From NCBI GenBank assembly GCA_014896305.1, contig JADBKQ010000012.1:62128-126127 (forward strand): a DNA stretch of 64,000 bases, given 5' to 3'. This DNA comes from Limnochordaceae bacterium (GTDB lineage Bacteria > Bacillota > Limnochordia > Limnochordales > DUMU01). A model generated the notes under the pieces. It worked only from the letters and a program-made list of their open reading frames with translations, ran no database searches and was not told the origin of the DNA. The position numbers were made by a program, and so were the translations under genes. Shown piece by piece: positions 3,616 to 52,642 of this stretch (the first letter of the stretch is position 1; each line of letters opens with the position of its first letter).

Positions 3616-3661
3616 AACCTGACTGACCTTCTTTCCTCTACATAACGAGCATGACGACCGT

Positions 3662-5929
3662 TTACAAGCGTTCGTGGAAGGTGCGATGGATCACCTCGAG
3701 CTGCTGCTCCCGGGTGAGCCGGACGAAGTTGACGGCATACCCAGAGACCCGGATGGTCAACTGCGGGTACTTTTCCGGATGGTCCATCGCGTCGAGCAAC
3801 GTCTCCCGGTTCAACACGTTGACGTTGATGTGATGACCGCCCCTGGTAAAGTACCCGTCCAGCAGGCCCACCAGGTTGGTGACCCGGTCCGGCTCGCTTT
3901 TGCCCAGCACGGACGGAATGATGGAGAAGGTGTAGGAGATACCGTCCTGAGCGTCCGCGTAGGGGAGCTTGGCCACAGAGTTGCAGGAGGCGACGGCGCC
4001 GTTGCGATCGCGACCGTGCATGGGGTTCGCTCCGGGAGCGAACGGTTCACCAGCCTTACGACCATCCGGCGTAGTACCTGTCTTCTTGCCGTAGACCACG
4101 TTGGAGGTGATGGTCAGTACGGAAAGGGTAGGCACGGCGTGGCGGTACGTCGGCTGGCGGCGCAGTTTCTCCGCAAACCGGTGCACCAGGTCTACGGCGA
4201 TGGCATCGACACGGTCGTCATCGTTCCCGTAGGCCGGCCATTCCCCTTCGACCTGGAAGTCGACGGCAATCCCCTGCTCGTCCCGTATGGGTTTCACCTT
4301 GGCATACTTGATCGCCGACAGCGAGTCGGCCGCGACCGACAGGCCAGCGATGCCGCAAGCCATGGTACGATAGACGTCTTCGTCGTGCAACGCCATCTGC
4401 AGGCTCTCGTAGCAATACTTATCGTGCATGTAGTGAATGATGTTGAGGGCGTTCATGTACGTTTGAGCCAGCCAATCCAGCATCCGGTCGTAAGCAGCCA
4501 TGACTTTGTCGTAGTCGAGGACTTCGTCCCGGATGGGCGGCATGGCCGGGCCTACTTGTTGCCGGGTCTTCTCGTCGATGCCCCCGTTGATCGCATACAA
4601 CAGTGCCTTCGCCAGGTTGGCCCTGGCACCGAAGAACTGCATCTGTTTGCCGATTCGCATGGCCGAGACACAGCAGGCGATGCCGTAATCGTCGCCCCAG
4701 TACGGCCGCATCAGGTCATCGTTTTCGTACTGGATCGCTGACGTGTCGGTGGAGACCTGCGCGCAGAAGCGCTTCCAGGCAGCAGGGAGATGGCTGGACC
4801 ACAAGACGGTCAAGTTGGGCTCTGGAGCGGGCCCCAGGTTGTACAGGGTCTGCAAGAAACGGAAACTGTTGCGGGTTACCAGGGGTCGGCCATCTACGCC
4901 CATACCGCCCAAGCTCTCGGTGACCCAGGTGGGGTCGCCGGAGAAGAGCTCGTTGTACTCAGGCGTGCGCAGGAAGCGAACCAGGCGCAGCTTGATGATG
5001 AACTGATCTGCCAGCTCCTGGGCCTCTGCTTCGGTGAGCGTTCCTTGCTGGAGGTCATGCTCTACGTAAATGTCCAGGAACGTCGAGACCCGTCCGAGGC
5101 TCATGGCCGCACCATTCTGTTGTTTGACAGCAGCCAGGTAGGCGAAGTACAGCCACTGGTAGGCCTCTTTCGCGTTCCGGGCCGGGCCGGAGATATCGAA
5201 GCCATAGGAGGCGGCCATCTGCTTGAGCTGTTCGAGGGCGCGGATCTGTTCCGTGATCTCTTCCCGATCGCGGATGGTCTCCTCGTTCAGGTTGGCGGTC
5301 TCCAGGCGGGTCAGCGCCTCCTGCTTGCGCCGAATCAGGAAGTCCACGCCGTACAGAGCGACGCGCCGGTAGTCCCCAATGATGCGCCCACGGCCGTACG
5401 CATCCGGCAGGCCGGTGATGATACCGGCATGGCGAGCTTTGCGGATCTCCGGCGTGTAAGCGTCGAACACACCCTGGTTATGGGTCTTGCGATAGTCTGT
5501 AAAGACCTTTTTCACTTCAGGGTCGAGGGTATACCCATAAGCCGAGCAGGCCTGTTCGACCATACGGATACCACCAAAAGGCATGATCGCCCGGCGCAGA
5601 GGGGCATCCGTCTGGAGTCCCACGATCACTTCGTCCTCCCGGTCAATGTACCCGGGCTGGTGGGAGGTGATGGTGGAAGGCGTATGGGTATCGACATCGA
5701 GGACGCCCTTTTGCTGTTCAAGGGCAAGCAGCTCCTGGCAGCGTCGCCACAGGCGTTGGGTAGCCGCGGACGGGCCTTCCAGGAACGAGGCATCTCCTAC
5801 GTAAGGGGTGTAGTTGCGCTGGATGAAATCCCGTACGTCGATGCGGTGCTGCCACGGCCCTGGTACCCAGTCTTGCCAGGCATCAGGGATGGCGTCGGAA
5901 CGAGAAGACACAACCGTTGCAACGGCCAT
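3662..5929 (-). CDS. pflB: formate C-acetyltransferase (pyruvate formate-lyase)
   Basis: 755 aa. It has the active-site [26 protein letters not shown] and the C-terminal glycyl-radical motif [26 protein letters not shown]. Confidence 0.95.
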
Positions 5930-45534: not shown

Positions 45535-46527
45535 CTACTCAACGTTGTGTTGGCGCAGGAAGTCCGAGACTTCGTCGGCGGTGGGCAGGGAGGGCTGTGC
45601 ACCAGCCCGGGTGACAGAAAGAGCGGCCACGGCGCAGGCGTAACGGGCAGCGGCAGCCAGCGACTCGCCCCGGGTCAGGGCAACGGCTAGCCCACCGCAG
45701 AACGCATCACCGGCAGCGGTGGTGTCCACCACGCGCACAGGGAAGGCCGGTACCCATGTGGAGAAGGAACGATCGGCGACCAGAGCGCCCTGTTCACCGG
45801 CGGTAATGACGAGCTGATGGACCCCCTGCTGCAGGAGGGAGGTGGCAGCTGCGGCAGCCACCTCCCCCTTGACTCCGGCAGATTCGAGGCCGGGGACGGC
45901 TGCGGAAGCCAGAGCCAGGGCCTCGGGCTCATTGGGCACGAGAAGATCGACCAGGGGCCACCAGTCGTGGACGTACCGGGCGAGTAGTTCTCCGGAGGGA
46001 GCTGGGGCTGGATTGAGCAGCACACGGCAATGGTGCTGGGCAGCAACTCGCAGCGCGGTCGTGACGGTAGGCAAGGGGATTTCCAATTGGATCAGCACGA
46101 TCTGGGCCCAGGCGAACCATTCTGCAGCCGCCTCCACCTGGGCGGGGGAGAGAGCATGGTTTGCGCCGGGCACGACGATGATCCGGTTTTGGCCGTTGTC
46201 CTCCACCACGATCCATGCCGTCCCGGTGGGCGCGTCTGGGCAACGGCCGATGGCGGTGGTACAGATTCCTTCCTCGTTCAAATGCTGAACGAGCTGATCG
46301 CCAGCGGCGTCCTGCCCGACGTTGCCGAGGAAAGTGACGGATGCGCCCAGGCGGGCAGCCGCCACCGCCTGGTTCGCCCCTTTGCCGCCGGGGAAGCGTT
46401 GCAGGGAGCTGCCCAGTACGGTTTCACCCGCTTCCGGGGCATGCTGGACGCGAACCACCACGTCCTGGTTGATGCTGCCAACCACCAGAATACGGGGAGG
46501 CGCAGCTGTTTGCACGGACTCAGGCAT
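45535..46527 (-). CDS. rbsK: ribokinase
   Basis: ILVVGSINQDVVV, FPGGKGANQAVAAARLG and C-terminal VVDTTAAGDAFCGGLAVAL. ATG 46527 follows AAAGGAG. Confidence 0.85.
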   Translation of the reverse strand: MPESVQTAAPPRILVVGSINQDVVVRVQHAPEAGETVLGSSLQRFPGGKGANQAVAAARLGASVTFLGNVGQDAAGDQLVQHLNEEGICTTAIGRCPDAPTGTAWIVVEDNGQNRIIVVPGANHALSPAQVEAAAEWFAWAQIVLIQLEIPLPTVTTALRVAAQHHCRVLLNPAPAPSGELLARYVHDWWPLVDLLVPNEPEALALASAAVPGLESAGVKGEVAAAAATSLLQQGVHQLVITAGEQGALVADRSFSTWVPAFPVRVVDTTAAGDAFCGGLAVALTRGESLAAAARYACAVAALSVTRAGAQPSLPTADEVSDFLRQHNVE

Positions 46528-46704
46528 GGGGCAGGCTCCTTTCGTTTGGCGACGCCACCGGTTTCGACGCCAGCAGGTGCTTTCCTGCCGGTCAGAGAAG
46601 TCAACCTCCTGGCGGGGGATGGGGCGCGGAGCGCTGTTCAAGAGGGGACAGGGGTCGGGAGTGGAAGTATAGCAGGGATAGCCGCCGTGAAGGCCAAGGA
46701 GGGA

Positions 46705-48255
46705 ATGGGGTTGACGCGGTCAGTAGCGCACTGGGACGAGAAGTATCAGGAGTTGCAGCATCGGGTGGAAGAGGTGGTCAACCTGGGCCGAGCGGAGGGG
46801 GTGCTGAGCTGGGACCAGCAGACGTACATGCCTCCGGGTGGGGCGCAGGCGCGAGCAGAGTCGGCGGCGGCGCTGGCCCGGATCGTGCACGAGCGCATCA
46901 CCGACCCGCACACGGGCGAGTTGCTGAACGATCTTTCCACCACCTTGCCCGAACTCCATCCGGATTCGGTGGAAGCGGCCTTTTTGCGGGTGGTCAAGCG
47001 GGAGTACGACCGGCTGGTCAAGCTGCCTGCCCGCTGGGTAGAGGAGAACGCCCGGGTTTCGTCGTTGGCGCAGGTCGTGTGGGTTAAAGCGAAGCAGGAG
47101 AGCGATTTCTCCAGTTTTGCTCCGTATTTGGAACGGCTGTTTGCGCTGGCACGCGAGGCCGCGGACTACCTGGGGTACGAAGAGCGGCCCTACGATGCCC
47201 TGCTTGCACAATACGAACCCGGGGTGCGGGCGAGTCAGTTAGAGCGCTGGTTTGCGGAACTGAAACCCGTTCTGACCCGCCTGGTGCAGGAGATTGCCAG
47301 CAAGCAGCCGGGTGGCCTGCCAGCTACAGCGGACGACGAGCCGTTCGGCCCGGCAGCGGAGTTTCCCGATGCGCAGCAGTGGGAGTTGGGCCAGCGCGTA
47401 CTGCGGGCCATGGGCTTCGACTTTCAGCGGGGGCGGCAGGACCGGTCCATCCATCCGTTTACCACGTCGTTCTCACCGGGCGACGTACGGATCACAACGT
47501 GGATCGTGCCCCGTAATTTCCTCTCGGCTTTGTACTCGACGGTTCACGAGGGAGGGCATGCTCTCTACGAACAAGGAATACCGCCCGAGTTGAGCCGAAT
47601 TGGCCTGGGGCAGCCGTCACTGGGGGTGCACGAGTCGCAAAGCCGCCTGTGGGAAAACATTGTCGGACGATCACGGGAGTTTTGGCAGTATTGGCTGCCC
47701 CAGGCGCAAGAGCTGTTTCCGGGCCAGCTGTCAGGGTTTACCGTCGAGAGTATGTACCACTTGGTCAATCAGGTGCGACCGTCGTTCATTCGTACGGAGG
47801 CGGATGAGGTCACGTACAATCTTCACATCTTCGTCCGTTTTGAACTGGAGCTGGCGCTGCTGGAACGCCGTCTGGAGGTGGCGGAGTTGCCGGAGGCCTG
47901 GAATCGGAAAATGGAACAGTACCTGGGCATCTGTCCCCCGGACGCGGCGCGGGGGGTGCTTCAGGATGTGCACTGGTCCGATGGGCTGATCGGCTACTTC
48001 CCCACCTATGCGCTGGGCAACATCCTCTCGGCCCAGTTCTACGAGCAGGCGCTGGCAGAAGTCCCGTCCATTCCAGCGGAAATTGCCCGCGGCCATCTAT
48101 TGCCTCTGAAGGAGTGGCTCAACCAGCGAATTCATGTGCATGGGGGCAAGTATGAGTCGCAGGTCCTCGTTCAGAAGGTGACGGGGCAGCCGCTCGTGAC
48201 CCAACCCTATCTGCAGTACATTCAGGCGAAGTATAGCGAGTTGTATGGGCTGTAA
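46705..48255 (+). CDS. M32 family carboxypeptidase (Taq-type)
   Basis: LSWDQQTYMPPGG, zinc site HEGGHALYEQG, HESQSRLWEN, IRTEADEVTYNLHI. The start is ATG 46705 or GTG 46687. Confidence 0.85.
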   Translation: MGLTRSVAHWDEKYQELQHRVEEVVNLGRAEGVLSWDQQTYMPPGGAQARAESAAALARIVHERITDPHTGELLNDLSTTLPELHPDSVEAAFLRVVKREYDRLVKLPARWVEENARVSSLAQVVWVKAKQESDFSSFAPYLERLFALAREAADYLGYEERPYDALLAQYEPGVRASQLERWFAELKPVLTRLVQEIASKQPGGLPATADDEPFGPAAEFPDAQQWELGQRVLRAMGFDFQRGRQDRSIHPFTTSFSPGDVRITTWIVPRNFLSALYSTVHEGGHALYEQGIPPELSRIGLGQPSLGVHESQSRLWENIVGRSREFWQYWLPQAQELFPGQLSGFTVESMYHLVNQVRPSFIRTEADEVTYNLHIFVRFELELALLERRLEVAELPEAWNRKMEQYLGICPPDAARGVLQDVHWSDGLIGYFPTYALGNILSAQFYEQALAEVPSIPAEIARGHLLPLKEWLNQRIHVHGGKYESQVLVQKVTGQPLVTQPYLQYIQAKYSELYGL

Positions 48256-48369
48256 GTGTAAGCGGTGGGGGAGGGGTAGGGAGGCAGTGGACTCGAAAAG
48301 GGGCACAGCGCCCCGCCCCTTCCTGCCGGCCCGGTTCGACCAGGGGCTGAAGCTGTACTGCAATCGGGC

Positions 48370-49653
48370 TTATCTGCCCAAGGGCAGGATGGTGCTGCCC
48401 AACAGGACCAGGGTCAACAGCACGAGAAAGAGTACGGTCACCCAGACGATCACGTTGTAGACAGGGCCGTTCGTATGGGTGCCCATCAGCCGTCGGTTGT
48501 TGACCAGCCGCAACATGAAGATGAGGATGACCGGCAGCAGAAAGCCGTTGACGTCCTGAGCAAACAGCATCATGCGGACCAGGGAGAGGCCGGGGATGAG
48601 GGGCAGCAAGGCGCCGATCCCTAAGATCGAGGTAAAAAGCCAGAAGAAGACGGGGGCTTCCTTCCAGGAACGGTTGACGCTCCGTTCGAAGCCGAACGCT
48701 TCGCTCAGCGCGTAGGCTGTCGACAGGGGCAGGATGGCGGCGGCCAGAAAGCCTGCGGCAAAGAGGCCCACGGCAAAAAGGATCGTAGCATACGCGCCCG
48801 CGAACGGCTCGAGCGCGCGGGCGGCATCCTCCGCCGTCTGGATGTGGATACCATGAGGGAAGAGTGTGGCGGCTGTCGTCACGATGATGAAGAATGAAAC
48901 AAGGTCCGACCAGAGCGACCCGATGGTCACGTCCCACCGGACATAATGCAGATCCTGCACGGTTAATCCTTTGTCAACCACGGAAGCTTGCAGGTAGAAC
49001 TGCATCCAGGGCGTGATCGTGGTTCCCACCATGCCCACGAAAAGGAGCATGAATGAGGGAGTCCAATGGAAGCGGGGCACGACCGCTTGCCGCAAGACCA
49101 TGCCCCAGTCGGGCCGGATCAACAGGCCTGACAAAATGTACGTGATGAACGCTCCAGCCAGGATCAGGAAGATCCGTTCGAGGCGGCGGTACGAGCCAGC
49201 GGTCACCGACCACCAGACCACGACCGCCGTGATCGGGATGGTGACCCAGCGGGGCACTCCGAAGATCTCCAGGCTGGCGGCCATCCCGGCGAATTCGGAG
49301 GCCGTGGTGGCAAGATTGGCCAGGAGCAGGGTGAGCATGGCGAGAAAAGCCATTTTCACCCCGAATTCCTCCCGGATGAGGTCTGCCAATCCCCGTCCAG
49401 TGACTGTTCCCAGTCGCGCGGCCATCTCCTGGATCACCACTAGGCTGATCGTGACCAGAATCAGCCCCCACAACATGTCATACCCGAAGGTAGCCCCCAC
49501 GGTGGAGTAGGTGGTAATGCCCCCAGGATCGTTGTCGGCGTTCGCCGTGACCAGTCCGGGGCCGATCACGGACAGGGAGAGCATCAGCCGGACCCAGGCC
49601 GGGTGGGTGTGGAGACGTTCCCTGACATTCCTCAGCCACGTCATGACTACCAC
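48370..49653 (-). CDS. Nramp-related cation transporter with non-canonical binding-site residues (NRMT-like)
   Basis: Nramp layout with TM1 GPGLVTANADNDPGGITTYS (DPGG instead of DPGN) and TM6 FVGMVGTTITPWMQFYL (GTTITPW instead of GATVMPH). The start is GTG 49653 or ATG 49644, overlapping or abutting the upstream gene's stop. Confidence 0.75.
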   Translation of the reverse strand: MVVMTWLRNVRERLHTHPAWVRLMLSLSVIGPGLVTANADNDPGGITTYSTVGATFGYDMLWGLILVTISLVVIQEMAARLGTVTGRGLADLIREEFGVKMAFLAMLTLLLANLATTASEFAGMAASLEIFGVPRWVTIPITAVVVWWSVTAGSYRRLERIFLILAGAFITYILSGLLIRPDWGMVLRQAVVPRFHWTPSFMLLFVGMVGTTITPWMQFYLQASVVDKGLTVQDLHYVRWDVTIGSLWSDLVSFFIIVTTAATLFPHGIHIQTAEDAARALEPFAGAYATILFAVGLFAAGFLAAAILPLSTAYALSEAFGFERSVNRSWKEAPVFFWLFTSILGIGALLPLIPGLSLVRMMLFAQDVNGFLLPVILIFMLRLVNNRRLMGTHTNGPVYNVIVWVTVLFLVLLTLVLLGSTILPLGR

Positions 49654-50936
49654 AATCCTCCGCGCCGGCGCTCCGCACTGAAGATCTCATCCGCGTGCTC
49701 CGGCAGCGATACCACACCCACCAGGCGTTCGTCTTCATCGAGCACGGGCAGTGCCAGGAGGTCATACTTCGCCAGCATCTCACCAACGGTTTGGCGGTCG
49801 TCGTCGACATGGACGGCGATCACCTTCGTTCGCATGATCTCCTCGAGGCGGCAGGATGGGGCCGCCACGACCAGATCTCGCAAGGAGACGGTCCCTAGCA
49901 AGTGGCCAGCTTGATCCACAACGTACAGGTAATAGGTGCTGTTGGCTGGCGGCTTGAGCTGGCGGAGGGCGGCAATCGTCTCATCGGCGGTTTGCGTTTG
50001 GGGGAAGAAAATGAACTCCCGGCTCATCAATCGACCCGCCGTGTCCTCTTCATACTCGAGAAAGCTGCGCACTTGCTCTCCCTGCTCGGGCTTCATCGCT
50101 CCCAGCAGAGCCGCCGCCCGGTCGGCGCGCAGCTGGCTAAGGATGTCGGCCGCCTCATCGGCCGGCAGCGACTCCAACAGACTTAGCACCCGTTCGGGCG
50201 TAAGGCGGGCGAGAATCTGTTCCCGGGCTTCCGGCTCCACCTCGGTCAGCGTTTCGGCTGCGATCGCTGGGGTCAGAGCGCCGAGAACCGCGGTGCGTTC
50301 ACGGGTATGCAAGGCTTCCAGGATGTCGGCTAGATCGGCTGGGCGCAGGCGGGCGAGCCGCTCGTAGGGGACGCCCAGATGGAGGCGACCATCGCCCTCC
50401 AATTCGATTCGCTGGACATCCTGCCAGCGGATGAGAGTGTCCGGCAGACTGAGATGAAGCCGGGCCTCCGCCCAGTGAACCAGCGGGCGCAACCCCAGTC
50501 GCCGCAACAACCCGCGCAATCCCACGTCGACGGCGACGAGACGCAACCCCCCTCCGACTTCGTTGAACTTCAGATCGTTCACCCGGACGACCCGCAAGCC
50601 GTTGAGGTCGACGATCTGTTTGTCAAACAGAGTACGACGAATAGGCAGCCAGCTGGCTTCGGGGGCAACTGGGGCTGCCTTCGACAGGGCTTCGGCGGGC
50701 ACGGTCAGCGACAGATACTGACGCACCAGTACCTGAACCGTCCGCCAGGGAATGTACAGGGGAGAGGGCAGATCGGGGTGTCGTCGCGACCGGACTTCCA
50801 GCGCTACCACCGGCGGTAGCTCATCCTTATCCAGTTGAACGTAAATCTCGACGACTCGCCCCAGCTTACGTCCCTTGGCATCAATGACAGTCTTGGCCAG
50901 GAGGCGGCTGGCATGAATCTCCGGCACTACACTCAT
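49647..50936 (-). CDS. soluble PRC-barrel x2 / MgtE N-domain / CBS-pair protein (MgtE cytosolic module without channel domain)
   Basis: PRC-like LLAKTVIDAKGRKLGRVVEIYV and LFDKQIVDLNGLRVVRVNDL. MgtE_N repeats LRPADLADILEAL...LPADEAADILSQL. CBS pair (..YLYVVDQAGHLLGTVSLRDL.., ..LALPVLDEDERLVGVVS). No hydrophobic helices are present. Confidence 0.75.
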   Translation of the reverse strand: MSVVPEIHASRLLAKTVIDAKGRKLGRVVEIYVQLDKDELPPVVALEVRSRRHPDLPSPLYIPWRTVQVLVRQYLSLTVPAEALSKAAPVAPEASWLPIRRTLFDKQIVDLNGLRVVRVNDLKFNEVGGGLRLVAVDVGLRGLLRRLGLRPLVHWAEARLHLSLPDTLIRWQDVQRIELEGDGRLHLGVPYERLARLRPADLADILEALHTRERTAVLGALTPAIAAETLTEVEPEAREQILARLTPERVLSLLESLPADEAADILSQLRADRAAALLGAMKPEQGEQVRSFLEYEEDTAGRLMSREFIFFPQTQTADETIAALRQLKPPANSTYYLYVVDQAGHLLGTVSLRDLVVAAPSCRLEEIMRTKVIAVHVDDDRQTVGEMLAKYDLLALPVLDEDERLVGVVSLPEHADEIFSAERRRGGLW

Positions 50937-51058
50937 GCAGCATCGCCCTCTCTCCTTTCCCTGGTTCAGTAGTTTTCTCGAGCTCTCAAGCCGCAGAAGC
51001 TATCTGGGCCGTCGTACTCTATTATTCCGCTGCGCCGCTCCCGGCGCGGCTTGCCAGG

Positions 51059-52228
51059 CTAAGCCCGGGCGGCGGCAGCTACCTGGTCTAGCGCCTCGAC
51101 CCCCTGTTGGGTCCAGATCCCCAGGAAGTCGATCAGCTGATCCAAACTGGGGCTATGGCCGAAACGGACGTAGAAGCCGGAAGTAGCGGTGCCGACCAGC
51201 AAAGCCTCGGCCAGCGGCAGCCCCAGCAGCAGGCCGGTGCACAGGCCAGCGTTGAAGTTGTCGCCCGCCCCTGTCGTCAACTTGGGATTGGGTGTGTAGG
51301 GGCCGCTGATGCGGACGGTTTTGCCTTGCGCGTACGCCGCTGCTTCCTCAGTCGGGTGCACTACGGTCGCCCACAAATCGAGAGCCCGTCCAATGCGCTC
51401 CGTCAGTTCATCGAGCGGCAGGCGAACGCCGCTGTGAGGCGTGACCCCCAGGGCGGCAGCCACCTGGTCGGCTTCGTTACGGTTAAACCCGGCAATCACC
51501 CGGCCGAAGGGCCGAAACGCCTGGATGAGGTGGAGTGCTTCCTGAAGTTCTTCCACCGTCCGTTTGCGTGGATCCGCCAGATCGATGAAGAAAAACAGAT
51601 CGCGCGGTAGCGAGAGGGTGGGCAGAAACTCCTGCGTCAGATGCTGCCAGATCTCGGTCATGCGCGGCAGAATGGACCAGTCCACTAGAGCGACCAACGC
51701 CGACTGCTGAAAGAGACGGCTCAACTCTTCCCGAGGAACATGTTGCATCAGGTTATCCCAGGAGACATGCTTGATGGGCTCGAGCTTTCCCATCATCAAT
51801 TTGCCATCGCTGAACTCCAGAGCGTCCGTATGTCCTGGATCGGCGATGCCAATCACCTTCGCCCGCTGGGCCAGCTCTTGAAAGACAGGGTGCGGTGACG
51901 GCACGCCTACGCTACCGATGTAGGTGAGCGAGAACCCGTAAGAGACAAGGCTGTTGGCCATAATGGGGCCATTGCCGCCCAGCTTGATGGTACGCGGCAC
52001 CAGTTCGATGTTGGCGGAGAGCCCGGCCGCCTGGGCTACTCGCTCCGCGTAGGCAGCAATCGTCTCAAACCGGACGTAATGATCGACATCCAGCCGTTTG
52101 TCCACCACGTCGCAAATCTCATCGACGAAGCCGTCGAATCCCGCCAGGACGTGCAGCTGCGCAGGCTGCACCGACCGGTTTTGCAAATGCTGGCGAGCTT
52201 GCGCTGCCAAAACCTGTGAATCAATCAC
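51059..52228 (-). CDS. PfkB/ribokinase-superfamily carbohydrate kinase
   Basis: Anion-hole/catalytic motif TTGAGDNFNAGLCTGLLLG near the C-terminus and KLGGNGPIMAN near the N-terminus. GTG 52228 follows AAGGAGGAG. Confidence 0.65.
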   Translation of the reverse strand: MIDSQVLAAQARQHLQNRSVQPAQLHVLAGFDGFVDEICDVVDKRLDVDHYVRFETIAAYAERVAQAAGLSANIELVPRTIKLGGNGPIMANSLVSYGFSLTYIGSVGVPSPHPVFQELAQRAKVIGIADPGHTDALEFSDGKLMMGKLEPIKHVSWDNLMQHVPREELSRLFQQSALVALVDWSILPRMTEIWQHLTQEFLPTLSLPRDLFFFIDLADPRKRTVEELQEALHLIQAFRPFGRVIAGFNRNEADQVAAALGVTPHSGVRLPLDELTERIGRALDLWATVVHPTEEAAAYAQGKTVRISGPYTPNPKLTTGAGDNFNAGLCTGLLLGLPLAEALLVGTATSGFYVRFGHSPSLDQLIDFLGIWTQQGVEALDQVAAAARA

Positions 52229-52642
52229 CGGAACTCTCCTCCTTGCTCGATCCTCCCCCAGAACCGGGACCATACTGGTCGCATGCAGGAAATCTAAGCC
52301 GATCCCTTACGCAACCACCTTAACATACCACAAATAGCCGGGCCATAGCAGGGGCTCGAACCCATCTTGCGACTGCAGGTACATGGGAGGAGAGGCGTCG
52401 GGCTATGAATGAACAGGGACGACGGCAGGCCAGGGCAGCCCTGCTCGGAAAGATCGAGCCCTTCTTGGGTGTGGTATCATATCTATCGATAAGCTTTGAA
52501 CTCCGAACAATTCGGGGCGGAAAGCAACACAGAGTCTGGAGTTTTCTGAGAATCGGGTGGCGGTACATACCGTCAGTCGACATCCTTTGCTCGGCCCGGA
52601 TGAGCCGGTGAGGGACGCTCGGGAAGGAGGACGGGCAAGGAT

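Follow-up and report, generated by a model that had tools for sequence, protein, structure and literature searches.

Two adjoining ORFs on the minus strand of a Limnochordaceae (Bacillota) genome, located in a stretch of 64,000 nucleotides (hereafter, the window; all positions refer to it), encode a permease of the Nramp fold and, directly upstream of it, a soluble protein that resembles the cytosolic part of the Mg2+ channel MgtE. The question raised by this locus is whether an MgtE-type sensor that has no pore of its own may serve as a regulator of an unrelated carrier and, if so, which metal would be carried and sensed.

Gene junction and upstream region

The features that define the locus are as follows:

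48370..49653, minus strand: Nramp-fold permease assigned to the NRMT clade, 427 aa long if started at GTG and 424 aa if started at ATG 49644
49647..50936, minus strand: accessory gene, encoding a soluble protein of 429 aa that lacks a membrane domain and has the architecture PRC-PRC-MgtE_N-CBS-CBS
49642..49661, minus strand: gene junction, with Shine-Dalgarno sequence, accessory stop codon and two candidate permease start codons
50937..51058, minus strand: upstream intergenic region of 122 nt, devoid of an M-box riboswitch and of a consensus promoter

Both ORFs are present as given in the initial annotation of this DNA, whose observations were right in all details that we checked. The accessory gene ends with a TAG codon (49649-49647), and the permease gene can start either at GTG 49653-49651, which overlaps the end of the accessory gene by 7 nt, or at ATG 49644-49642, which lies 2 nt past the accessory stop. 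A Shine-Dalgarno sequence, GGAGGA, occupies positions 49661-49656. Since it is located 11 nt ahead of the ATG and just 2 nt ahead of the GTG, the former codon is the more plausible permease start as judged from the spacing. The two genes would thus abut with the ATG or overlap with the GTG and, given that their adjacency is conserved in other genomes (see below), the proposal that they are a tightly coupled pair holds. We suggest that they form one operon, in which translational coupling would lead to production of the two proteins in a fixed proportion.

The window was scanned in full with Rfam at gathering thresholds, and no match to the M-box (RF00380) or any other riboswitch was retrieved; a permissive scan of positions 50800-51400 yielded noise only. 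A promoter and terminator search of positions 48000-51400 revealed no promoter-like site and one terminator-like hairpin, which is located inside a gene and is below the shuffle expectation. Elsewhere, 6 out of 16 related loci that were scanned have an M-box Mg2+ riboswitch ahead of the accessory gene, and this links the accessory family to Mg2+. The M-box was used as a marker for the high-affinity Mg2+ subset of NrmT transporters by Shin et al. 2014 (PMC4072509); it is a marker of a subset and is not required for membership in the NRMT clade.

The permease and its metal site

The permease matches the Pfam Nramp profile (PF01566) with an E-value of 1.4e-100 and covers 356 of 357 profile positions. 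Its best structural relative is EleNRMT (7qia, E = 3e-124; 50% identity over 402 residues, ungapped), which is far closer than DraNramp (8e-29), the NRAT structure 8ont (6e-17) or canonical Nramps in general (E-values of ~1e-28 to 1e-10). The score against the NCBIfam MntH model, 150 bits, is under the cutoff of 430. Two motifs make up the site:

49519..49530, minus strand: TM1 site motif D42-P-G-G45 (codons GAT CCT GGG GGC), which provides DxxG of the NRMT signature
49006..49026, minus strand: TM6 site motif G210-T-T-I-T-P-W216, which provides TxxT of the same signature

Four substitutions relative to transition-metal Nramps (N to G, A to T, M to T and H to W) had been read from these motifs in the initial annotation. 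They are real, since the HMMER alignment to DraNramp pairs DPGG with DPGN and GTTITPW with GATV(M)PH (the chain aligned, 8e6i, has Ala at the Met position), while the alignment to EleNRMT pairs the same motifs with DAGG and GTTIAPW. The NRMT signature is defined as DxxG in TM1 and TxxA/T in TM6, which replace DxxN and AxxM (PMC8806188), and it is present in 61 of 64 partner permeases of other loci. Residues D42, G45 and T211 of the window permease are equivalent to D55, G58 and T224 of EleNRMT; all of D55, G58, E133, T224 and Q379 of the latter are conserved, and the TM3 Glu (E120) and TM10 Gln (Q366) are kept. As for the proton pathway, W216 occupies the position of the first TM6b His, where EleNRMT also has Trp, and the position of the second His aligns with Q or L. 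Canonical Nramp/MntH proteins (DraNramp, ScaDMT, EcoDMT) share with the permease the fold, the Pfam family and the TM1 Asp; however, where their DPGN/A..MPH site has Asn, Ala, Met and His, the permease has G, T, T and W, and its TM8-9 loop contains an extra conserved insertion. By these sequence comparisons, the permease is a member of the NRMT clade of the Nramp/SLC11 family, in agreement with the initial annotation.

EleNRMT (PDB 7QIA/7QIC/7QJI/7QJJ) was shown to carry both Mg2+ and Mn2+, to exclude Ca2+ and to transport in liposomes in the absence of a partner and without H+ coupling (Ramanadane et al., eLife 2022). By homology, the window permease would be a LeuT-fold uniporter uncoupled from protons, and its cargo would be largely hydrated Mg2+, plus Mn2+, accommodated by an enlarged site made of D42, G45, T211 and T214, with Q366 and E120 conserved as well. 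EleNRMT differs from it in having DAGG/TTIA rather than DPGG/TTIT and in coming from an actinomycetote, Eggerthella lenta, rather than from Limnochordaceae of the Bacillota; since EleNRMT was characterised without its partner, the likeness concerns the permease, not the pair.

One may ask whether the physiological cargo of the same two proteins is instead Mn2+ (or Mn2+ and Fe2+), with the accessory protein sensing Mn2+, or else cytosolic Mg2+/ATP as a general status signal. The one NrmT tested to date that is encoded beside an MgtE-like protein and lacks a riboswitch, that of A. capsulatum, behaved mainly as a Mn2+ transporter: a mutant defective in Mn2+ uptake was rescued in full, whereas Mg2+ uptake was rescued at millimolar Mg2+ only (PMC4072509). 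The ability of EleNRMT to carry Mn2+ besides Mg2+ (PMC8806188) points in the same direction, as does the DPGG motif of the window permease, which retains the Pro of canonical DPGN, whereas the 61 other partner permeases mostly have DAGG. In addition, since the window locus has no M-box, either Mg2+ or Mn2+ could be the ion favoured by its permease. Against this stands the full NRMT signature, including T211, whose EleNRMT equivalent T224 is specifically needed for Mg2+ (PMC8806188), together with the absence of the Met whose thioether confers selectivity for transition metals. Moreover, the accessory protein retains all-oxygen acidic ligands of the Mg2+ type (see below), and orthologous operons in related Bacillota are under M-box control. 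We consider Mn2+ as the main physiological cargo to be somewhat unlikely. The initial annotation predicted a Mg2+-regulated two-component importer, which is still the most reasonable reading of the locus; its assignment of Mg2+ has to be tempered, given the lack of an M-box, the behaviour of A. capsulatum NrmT and the dual specificity of EleNRMT.

The soluble partner and its Mg2+ ligands

The accessory protein is composed of the following parts:

50694..50921, minus strand: PRC-barrel 1, residues 6-81 (Pfam PF05239, E = 7e-12)
50376..50651, minus strand: PRC-barrel 2, divergent, residues ~96-187 (weak Pfam PRC match, E = 0.05; homologues, hhalign and AlphaFold2)
50043..50348, minus strand: MgtE N-domain, residues 197-298 (PF03448, E = 1.8e-24)
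49704..50027, minus strand: CBS pair, residues ~304-411 (two PF00571 matches, E = 5e-18)
49650..49706, minus strand: C-terminal helix, residues 411-429, a remnant of the MgtE plug helix (alignment; AlphaFold2 helix 411-425)

Two PRC-like segments had been proposed at the outset. The first was detected directly by Pfam; the second is by itself under the Pfam threshold and is nevertheless a true, divergent PRC barrel, because a PRC match is found in 14 of 16 family members (best E-value 2e-4), because hhalign relates the profiles of the two segments to each other with a probability of 92% (E = 5e-7) and because AlphaFold2 models the region as a confident beta domain, with strands plus helices at 140-160. 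As can be seen from the hhalign alignment, the second barrel contains a helical insertion of ~21 aa; it bears the motif VDxGxRGLLRRLG, the most conserved of the accessory family.

The rest of the protein is the cytosolic sensor module of MgtE without the pore, as the initial annotation had recognised. The best PDB match is the cytosolic domain of T. thermophilus MgtE (2yvy, E = 5e-41, 37% identity), and a Foldseek search with the AlphaFold2 model (pLDDT 85.6) retrieved the same structure (E = 1.5e-22, TMt 0.72). The protein is not an MgtE channel, since there is no match to the MgtE membrane domain (PF01769), the five-helix pore that contains the Mg1 Asp, the polypeptide ending 12 residues past the CBS pair; since its match to TIGR00400 (mgtE) covers only positions 26-244 of 450 and, at 161 bits, is under the cutoff of 232.75; and since its maximum 19-residue Kyte-Doolittle mean is 1.13, compared to 2.97 for the permease. 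The last value also bears out the earlier remark that the upstream protein has no hydrophobic helix. The possibility that the gene is a decaying MgtE pseudogene was considered and rejected, because full-length homologues of ~420 aa number in the thousands and 40 alignment columns are invariant across 22 diverse members.

We next compared the residues of the accessory protein with the Mg2+ sites of MgtE as defined by Maruyama et al. 2018 (PMC5882242), using the 2yvy alignment. In the N-domain, E228, D260 and D264 of the accessory protein correspond to E59 (Mg7), D91 (Mg4) and D95 (Mg6) of T. thermophilus MgtE; in the CBS pair, D392 corresponds to D226 (Mg5); and in the C-terminal helix, E413 and D416 correspond to D247 (Mg4) and D250 (Mg5). 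Most of these ligands are also kept among 65 partner proteins: D260 in 59 and D264 in 60 of them, Glu or Asp at position 228 in 60, Asp at position 413 in 53, and Asp or Glu at position 416 in 52. The Mg5 position equivalent to D226 is Asn in 43 of the 65 and Asp in the window protein. The plug-helix ligands of Mg2 and Mg3, E258 and D259 of MgtE, through which sensor and pore are coupled, are replaced by R424 and R425; the family consensus at the plug-helix ligand positions is R/K-R/K-R/K, and the R/K-rich tail is conserved. Thus, by alignment, the acidic ligands of the Mg4-Mg7 sites are retained in the accessory protein, and the Mg2/Mg3 plug-helix sites are lost. In MgtE, Mg4-Mg7 are inter-domain, low-affinity regulatory sites (PMC5882242). 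Since the acidic ligands that clamp the N-domain to the CBS pair are in place, the accessory protein should still switch its shape with Mg2+, from an open Mg2+-free to a compact Mg2+-bound form at millimolar cytosolic Mg2+.

Compared to T. thermophilus MgtE (PDB 2YVX/2YVY/2ZY9), with which it shares the N-domain, the CBS pair and the Mg4-Mg7 ligands, the accessory protein lacks the PF01769 pore, has Arg-Arg in place of E258/D259 and carries two additional N-terminal PRC-barrels. The same tandem PRC extension is present on at least four full-length MgtE channels, and the RGLLRRLG insertion occurs on such channels too. The accessory protein was therefore, judging by sequence, most likely derived from this PRC-bearing MgtE subfamily through loss of the pore. 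For the same reason, a role of the PRC-barrels as an element for docking to NRMT is unlikely.

Conserved linkage and proposed regulation

A gene-neighbourhood check supports the pairing seen in the window. An NRMT gene adjoins the accessory gene in 64 of 80 accessory loci, which come from at least 12 phyla plus Methanobacterium; in 61 of the 64, it is located directly downstream on the same strand. The spacing in these 61 pairs from other genomes is between -30 and +35 nt in 44 cases, and an exact 4-nt overlap is observed in 15. Conversely, 71 of 73 informative metagenomic NRMT loci (97%) contain an accessory gene, in 70 cases upstream on the same strand. Adjacency of the two genes is thus far above chance, and the linkage is near-obligate. 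Natural fusions of the two proteins were absent among the best 120 matches of either search (with the accessory protein or with the permease).

The accessory protein might act independently of the permease, for example on some other target, so that adjacency would reflect nothing more than co-regulation of two Mg2+-homeostasis genes. Indeed, 13 of 80 accessory loci have no nearby NRMT. Such orphans occur in Armatimonadota, Chloroflexota and Clostridium, and an M-box still precedes one of them; other or additional targets are therefore conceivable. The genes downstream of the Clostridium orphans were considered as alternative partners; they encode SleB-like cell-wall hydrolases, apparently unrelated. 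The single co-expression test available, in which A. capsulatum ACP2976 was expressed together with ACP2977, left the rescue of a Mg2+-transport-deficient B. subtilis unaltered, rescue being the one outcome scored (PMC4072509). However, independent action is hard to reconcile with a partner at 97% of informative NRMT loci, with the many 4-nt overlaps and with linkage that spans bacteria and archaea; persistent, ordered and translationally coupled linkage of this kind is typical of physically interacting subunits. We regard independent action as very improbable, and infer that the two proteins interact.

The arrangement had been taken in the initial annotation to be uncharacterised. This is not the case: Shin et al. 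(PLoS Genet 2014; PMC4072509) reported an MgtE-like neighbour at most NrmT genes ('mgtE-nramp operons', their Fig S5) as the typical context, tested one pair, and proposed cytoplasmic feedback regulation by the MgtE-like partner, with chaperone activity as their alternative. The window locus is therefore an ordinary further example of the two-gene unit described in 2014, and it adds one example from an uncultured lineage to a family of thousands; the question of regulation by the partner likewise dates from that work, not from the present analysis. Gene order in the operons of that study (C. acetobutylicum Ca_c0685 and Ca_c3329; A. capsulatum ACP2976-ACP2977) is the same as in the window (PMC4072509). 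The Clostridium operons differ in being controlled by an M-box and in having the partner split into two genes, compared to a single 429-aa partner and no riboswitch here; in this respect the window locus is like the A. capsulatum pair. In those parts of the 2014 text that were searched, the partner is termed 'small' and PRC-barrels go unmentioned (PMC4072509). Full-text searches, which included Cellier 2022, a 2026 review of Mg2+ transporters and a 2026 DraNramp preprint, retrieved no characterisation of the accessory protein after 2014, and no direct evidence for its interaction with the permease was found in the literature searched. With the exception of the A. capsulatum co-expression, the functional and structural NRMT studies that we found dealt with the permease alone throughout. 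CabNRMT complemented on its own (PMC4072509) and EleNRMT alone transports; the partner is therefore dispensable for transport itself.

The most likely function of the locus, to which we assign a probability of roughly 0.55, is that of an H+-uncoupled Mg2+/Mn2+ importer inhibited by a detachable cytosolic Mg2+ sensor. When cytosolic Mg2+ is high enough to load the sensor, the latter would bind to the permease from the cytoplasmic side and inhibit it, creating negative feedback equivalent to that exerted by the built-in cytosolic domains of MgtE and CorA. A cation importer that is uncoupled and driven by the membrane potential would need such a brake against overload.

A different kind of assistance, in which the accessory protein, instead of being a gate, takes over the imported ion as a metal chaperone or buffer, or else promotes the assembly or stability of the permease, appears to us quite unlikely. 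In its favour, PRC-barrels in tandem typically serve protein-protein interaction, as in RimM and the reaction-centre H subunit. Chaperone activity is the alternative named by Shin et al. 2014 (PMC4072509), and the instability of EleNRMT alone in detergent, which required 11 consensus mutations, is compatible with a missing subunit (PMC8806188). On the other hand, the retained sites are low-affinity regulatory sites in MgtE and as such suit sensing rather than carrying (PMC5882242), and the PRC-barrels are also found on full-length MgtE and are therefore not specific to NRMT. Furthermore, an ion as plentiful in the cell as Mg2+ requires no chaperone.

Returning to inhibition by a detachable sensor, we can offer a more specific and more tentative version of it, about which we are rather less than confident: the PRC-PRC-MgtE_N-CBS protein may be a genuine regulatory subunit, detachable from the SLC11-family carrier that it serves, and its Mg2+-loaded closed form would block the inward-open vestibule of a monomeric NRMT from the cytoplasmic face. 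Docking might involve the C-terminal tail with its conserved Arg/Lys residues and, on the permease, the TM8-9 loop that is specific to NRMTs. If the partner does gate the permease, the modular, trans-acting MgtE sensor would be a useful example of regulatory domains moving between transporter folds, and the first in which a sensor of the MgtE type has been moved in trans onto an unrelated one. In that event, what has been studied to date under the name of NRMT, the published EleNRMT included, would be one half of a system, deprived of its regulation. The gene of a close EleNRMT relative, with 92% identity to the 7qia sequence, is preceded at a distance of 3 nt by a gene for a 450-aa PRC/MgtE_N/CBS protein.

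The permease and its upstream gene

Two minus-strand open reading frames had been described in the initial annotation, a permease and a protein encoded directly upstream, and ORF calling recovered both as described, with the following features in and around them.

51059-52273, minus strand: ketohexokinase-like PfkB gene (prokaryotic type, PF25270, 1.4e-58), upstream flank, 122 nt from the pair
49647-50936, minus strand: accessory gene, 429 aa, ATG start
48370-49653, minus strand: permease gene, 427 aa with the GTG start, 424 aa with ATG 49644
49530-49519, minus strand: TM1 motif D42-P-G-G45, codons GAT CCT GGG GGC
Permease residues 210-216, minus strand: GTTITPW
About 48650-48690: TM8-9 loop insertion, permease residues about 322-335
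46030-48255, plus strand (opposite to the pair): M32 carboxypeptidase, other flank, 741-aa ORF as listed
45535-46641, minus strand: PfkB/ribokinase-like gene, overlapping the listed M32 carboxypeptidase ORF

The junction reads GGAGGA-TTGTGG-TAG-TC-ATG. The accessory stop is TAG 49649-49647; a GTG start of the permease would give a 7-nt overlap and the ATG a 2-nt gap, in agreement with the earlier description of an overlapping or abutting start. Since 11 nt separate the GGAGGA Shine-Dalgarno sequence (49661-49656) from the ATG and only 2 nt separate it from the GTG, we favour the ATG as the putative start; the genes abut whichever start is used. No other metal-related genes are adjacent to the pair in the window. 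The M32 carboxypeptidase ORF is over-extended: its Pfam match begins at residue 242, which places the true start near 46750 and makes the overlap with the PfkB/ribokinase-like gene an ORF-calling artefact. Overlapping ORFs in other frames are numerous in the window, as expected for high-GC sequence.

The permease matches the whole Pfam Nramp profile (E=1.4e-100). It scores 150 bits with the NCBIfam MntH model (cutoff 430) and is thus no ordinary MntH. Among all PDB sequences, EleNRMT (7QIA and related entries) is by far its best match (E=3e-124, 402 residues aligned without a gap, 50% identity), compared with only 8e-29 for canonical Nramps and 6e-17 for the plant aluminium transporter NRAT. 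In HMMER alignments, DPGG pairs with DPGN of DraNramp and DAGG of EleNRMT, and GTTITPW with GATV(M)PH and GTTIAPW, respectively, as the proposed site substitutions require. Ramanadane et al. 2022 (PMC8806188) give DxxG-TxxA/T as the clade signature and report that EleNRMT cannot do without D55 and Q379 and requires T224 specifically for Mg2+. At the EleNRMT-equivalent positions the window permease carries D42, G45, T211, T214, E120 and Q366. Judged by sequence, all marks of NRMT membership are present, which bears out the original assignment, and the identity of both proteins is near certain.

The DPGG form of TM1 (49519-49530), retaining the Pro of the canonical DPGN motif, occurs in the window permease alone among 62 partner permeases; the others have DAGG, DASG or DATG. 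Relative to DraNramp, the cytoplasmic TM8-9 loop of NRMTs is extended by an insertion of ~11 residues that includes a conserved ..EAPxF motif and might serve as a partner contact site.

Domains and Mg2+ ligands of the accessory protein

The accessory had been interpreted as an MgtE sensor module lacking its pore, and domain analysis agrees. Pfam identifies PRC (residues 6-81), MgtE_N (197-298) and two CBS domains, the mgtE equivalog model matches at positions 26-244 of 450 only, with a score under cutoff, and no hydrophobic segment was found in the whole 429-aa protein. In the PDB, the cytosolic domain of T. thermophilus MgtE matches best (E=5e-41). A confident AlphaFold2 model built with 22 homologues as input (pLDDT 85.6) superposes through its C-terminal half on the cytosolic domain of MgtE in the Mg2+-bound state (Foldseek E=1.5e-22, TMt 0.72) and has a second beta domain at residues 96-187. 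Although this segment alone falls short of the Pfam PRC threshold (E=0.05), 14 of 16 homologous second segments match PRC and the profiles of the two segments align with an hhalign probability of 92%, so the two PRC-barrel-like segments originally proposed are real. The second contains an insertion of ~21 residues (hhalign) that carries VDxGxRGLLRRLG, the most conserved motif of the accessory family.

This architecture is very common (6159 matches at E<=1e-10 among 8000 candidates scored); among the 120 matches listed, almost all are 411-442 aa long with PRC, MgtE_N and CBS, and an identical protein has been recorded in a Limnochordaceae MAG. Full-length MgtE channels of 598-649 aa with PF01769 (homologues P0048 and P0062; scan loci L015:3711-5534 and L036:3998-5947) bear the same tandem PRC N-terminal extension and RGLLRRLG insertion. 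Hence the stand-alone accessory probably derived from this PRC-bearing MgtE subfamily via pore-domain loss or fission.

Mg2+ ligands were mapped from the accessory-TtMgtE alignment. Chain numbers run 3 ahead of residue numbers; this offset was verified on I28, I84, I190 and I242 and on six acidic residues that Maruyama et al. 2018 (PMC5882242) name.

MgtE Mg2+ ligands and aligned accessory residues
E59 (Mg7): E228
D91 and D247 (Mg4): D260 and E413
D95 (Mg6): D264
D226 and D250 (Mg5): D392 and D416

Across 65 NRMT-adjacent accessory proteins the Mg4-Mg7 positions are mostly acidic, except that of D226, which is Asn in 43. By contrast, the plug-helix ligands E258 and D259 (Mg2, Mg3), which couple sensor to pore in MgtE, are R424 and R425 in the window accessory, and the family consensus has three Arg/Lys residues at this point; the two full-length PRC-MgtE channels in the set, unlike the accessory, keep Glu. 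Thus the Mg2+-closing part of the sensor is kept and its output end is rebuilt.

Linkage of the two genes across genomes

Conservation of the neighbourhood, proposed earlier as a check, was evident from both sides. The search from the accessory, with one genome taken per species, gave 80 loci, from Dormibacterota, Armatimonadota, Chloroflexota, Nitrospirota, Bacteroidota, Desulfobacterota, Bacillota, Actinomycetota, Acidobacteriota, Omnitrophota, Patescibacteria, Margulisbacteria and the archaeon Methanobacterium. An NRMT-like permease adjoins the accessory in 64, directly downstream on the same strand in 61; gaps are -30 to +35 nt in 44 of these 61, and 15 have an exact 4-nt overlap. DxxG and TxxA-or-T are present in 61 of the 64 partners; the remaining three look to have been picked in the wrong reading frame. 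Of the 16 loci that lack a permease, two are full-length PRC-MgtE channels, one lies on a contig that stops right after the gene, and 13 are true orphans. In metagenomes, 71 of 80 NRMT loci have the accessory, which is upstream and on the permease strand in 70; in seven the upstream sequence is too short to judge, and just two are without it although 1400 nt or more of upstream sequence is present. For the permease, the link is thus nearly obligate; that the accessory functions independently of the permease is very improbable. Next to P0130, a close relative of EleNRMT with 92% identity to the 7QIA sequence, a 450-aa PRC/MgtE_N/CBS gene ends 3 nt before the permease start.

Translational coupling is not universal, since in L028, L034 and L040 the adjoining NRMT gene is on the opposite strand. 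Two Methanobacterium loci (L033, L069) share this gene order, with both genes on one strand, which implies a putative transfer as a unit between Bacteria and Archaea. The orphans (L010, L016, L027, L029, L032, L043, L044, L050, L052, L059, L060, L063 and L075) belong to Armatimonadota, Chloroflexota and Clostridium and have no NRMT within about 4 kb; that of Clostridium peptidivorans (L032) still lies behind an M-box riboswitch (3626-3791) and is followed by a SleB-like cell-wall hydrolase gene.

Proposed role in cation uptake

The arrangement was initially thought to be uncharacterised, which is incorrect: the clade received its name, NrmT, from Shin et al. 2014 (PMC4072509), who described an MgtE-like neighbour for most of its genes, split in two in C. 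acetobutylicum. Co-expression of the A. capsulatum pair did not improve rescue of Mg2+ uptake. These authors speculated that the MgtE-like fragment either regulates transport through feedback from the cytoplasm or acts as a metal chaperone, and the mechanism predicted in the initial annotation is the same; its interpretation was right on protein identities and probable roles and wrong on novelty. A chaperone or stability role appears unlikely to us. The neighbour gene is absent from the searched text of the 2022 EleNRMT structural paper, and we found no paper on the accessory after Shin et al. 2014. The arrangement is thus known, and the locus points to the question of how NRMTs are regulated.

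EleNRMT transports Mg2+ and Mn2+ in an uncoupled manner. Where the membrane potential drives a cation uniporter, a brake is needed. In MgtE and CorA, the brake is supplied by Mg2+-binding cytosolic domains. That of MgtE is covered in Maruyama et al. 2018 (PMC5882242). We infer, giving the model as a whole a probability of roughly 0.55, that the accessory acts in trans as a Mg2+-dependent inhibitor of the permease and would be produced in stoichiometric amounts with it. Retention of the Mg4-Mg7 ligands, the basic tail in place of the pore-coupling acidic residues and the tight, ordered linkage fit this model. Of 16 related loci, 6 have an M-box riboswitch ahead of the accessory gene, which ties the family to Mg2+ homeostasis. 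The main alternative to Mg2+-dependent inhibition of a Mg2+ importer, the same architecture with Mn2+ as cargo, is less likely; it is favoured by the lack of an M-box at the window locus and by the A. capsulatum precedent, in which, according to Shin et al. (PMC4072509), a riboswitch-less permease rescued Mn2+ uptake instead.
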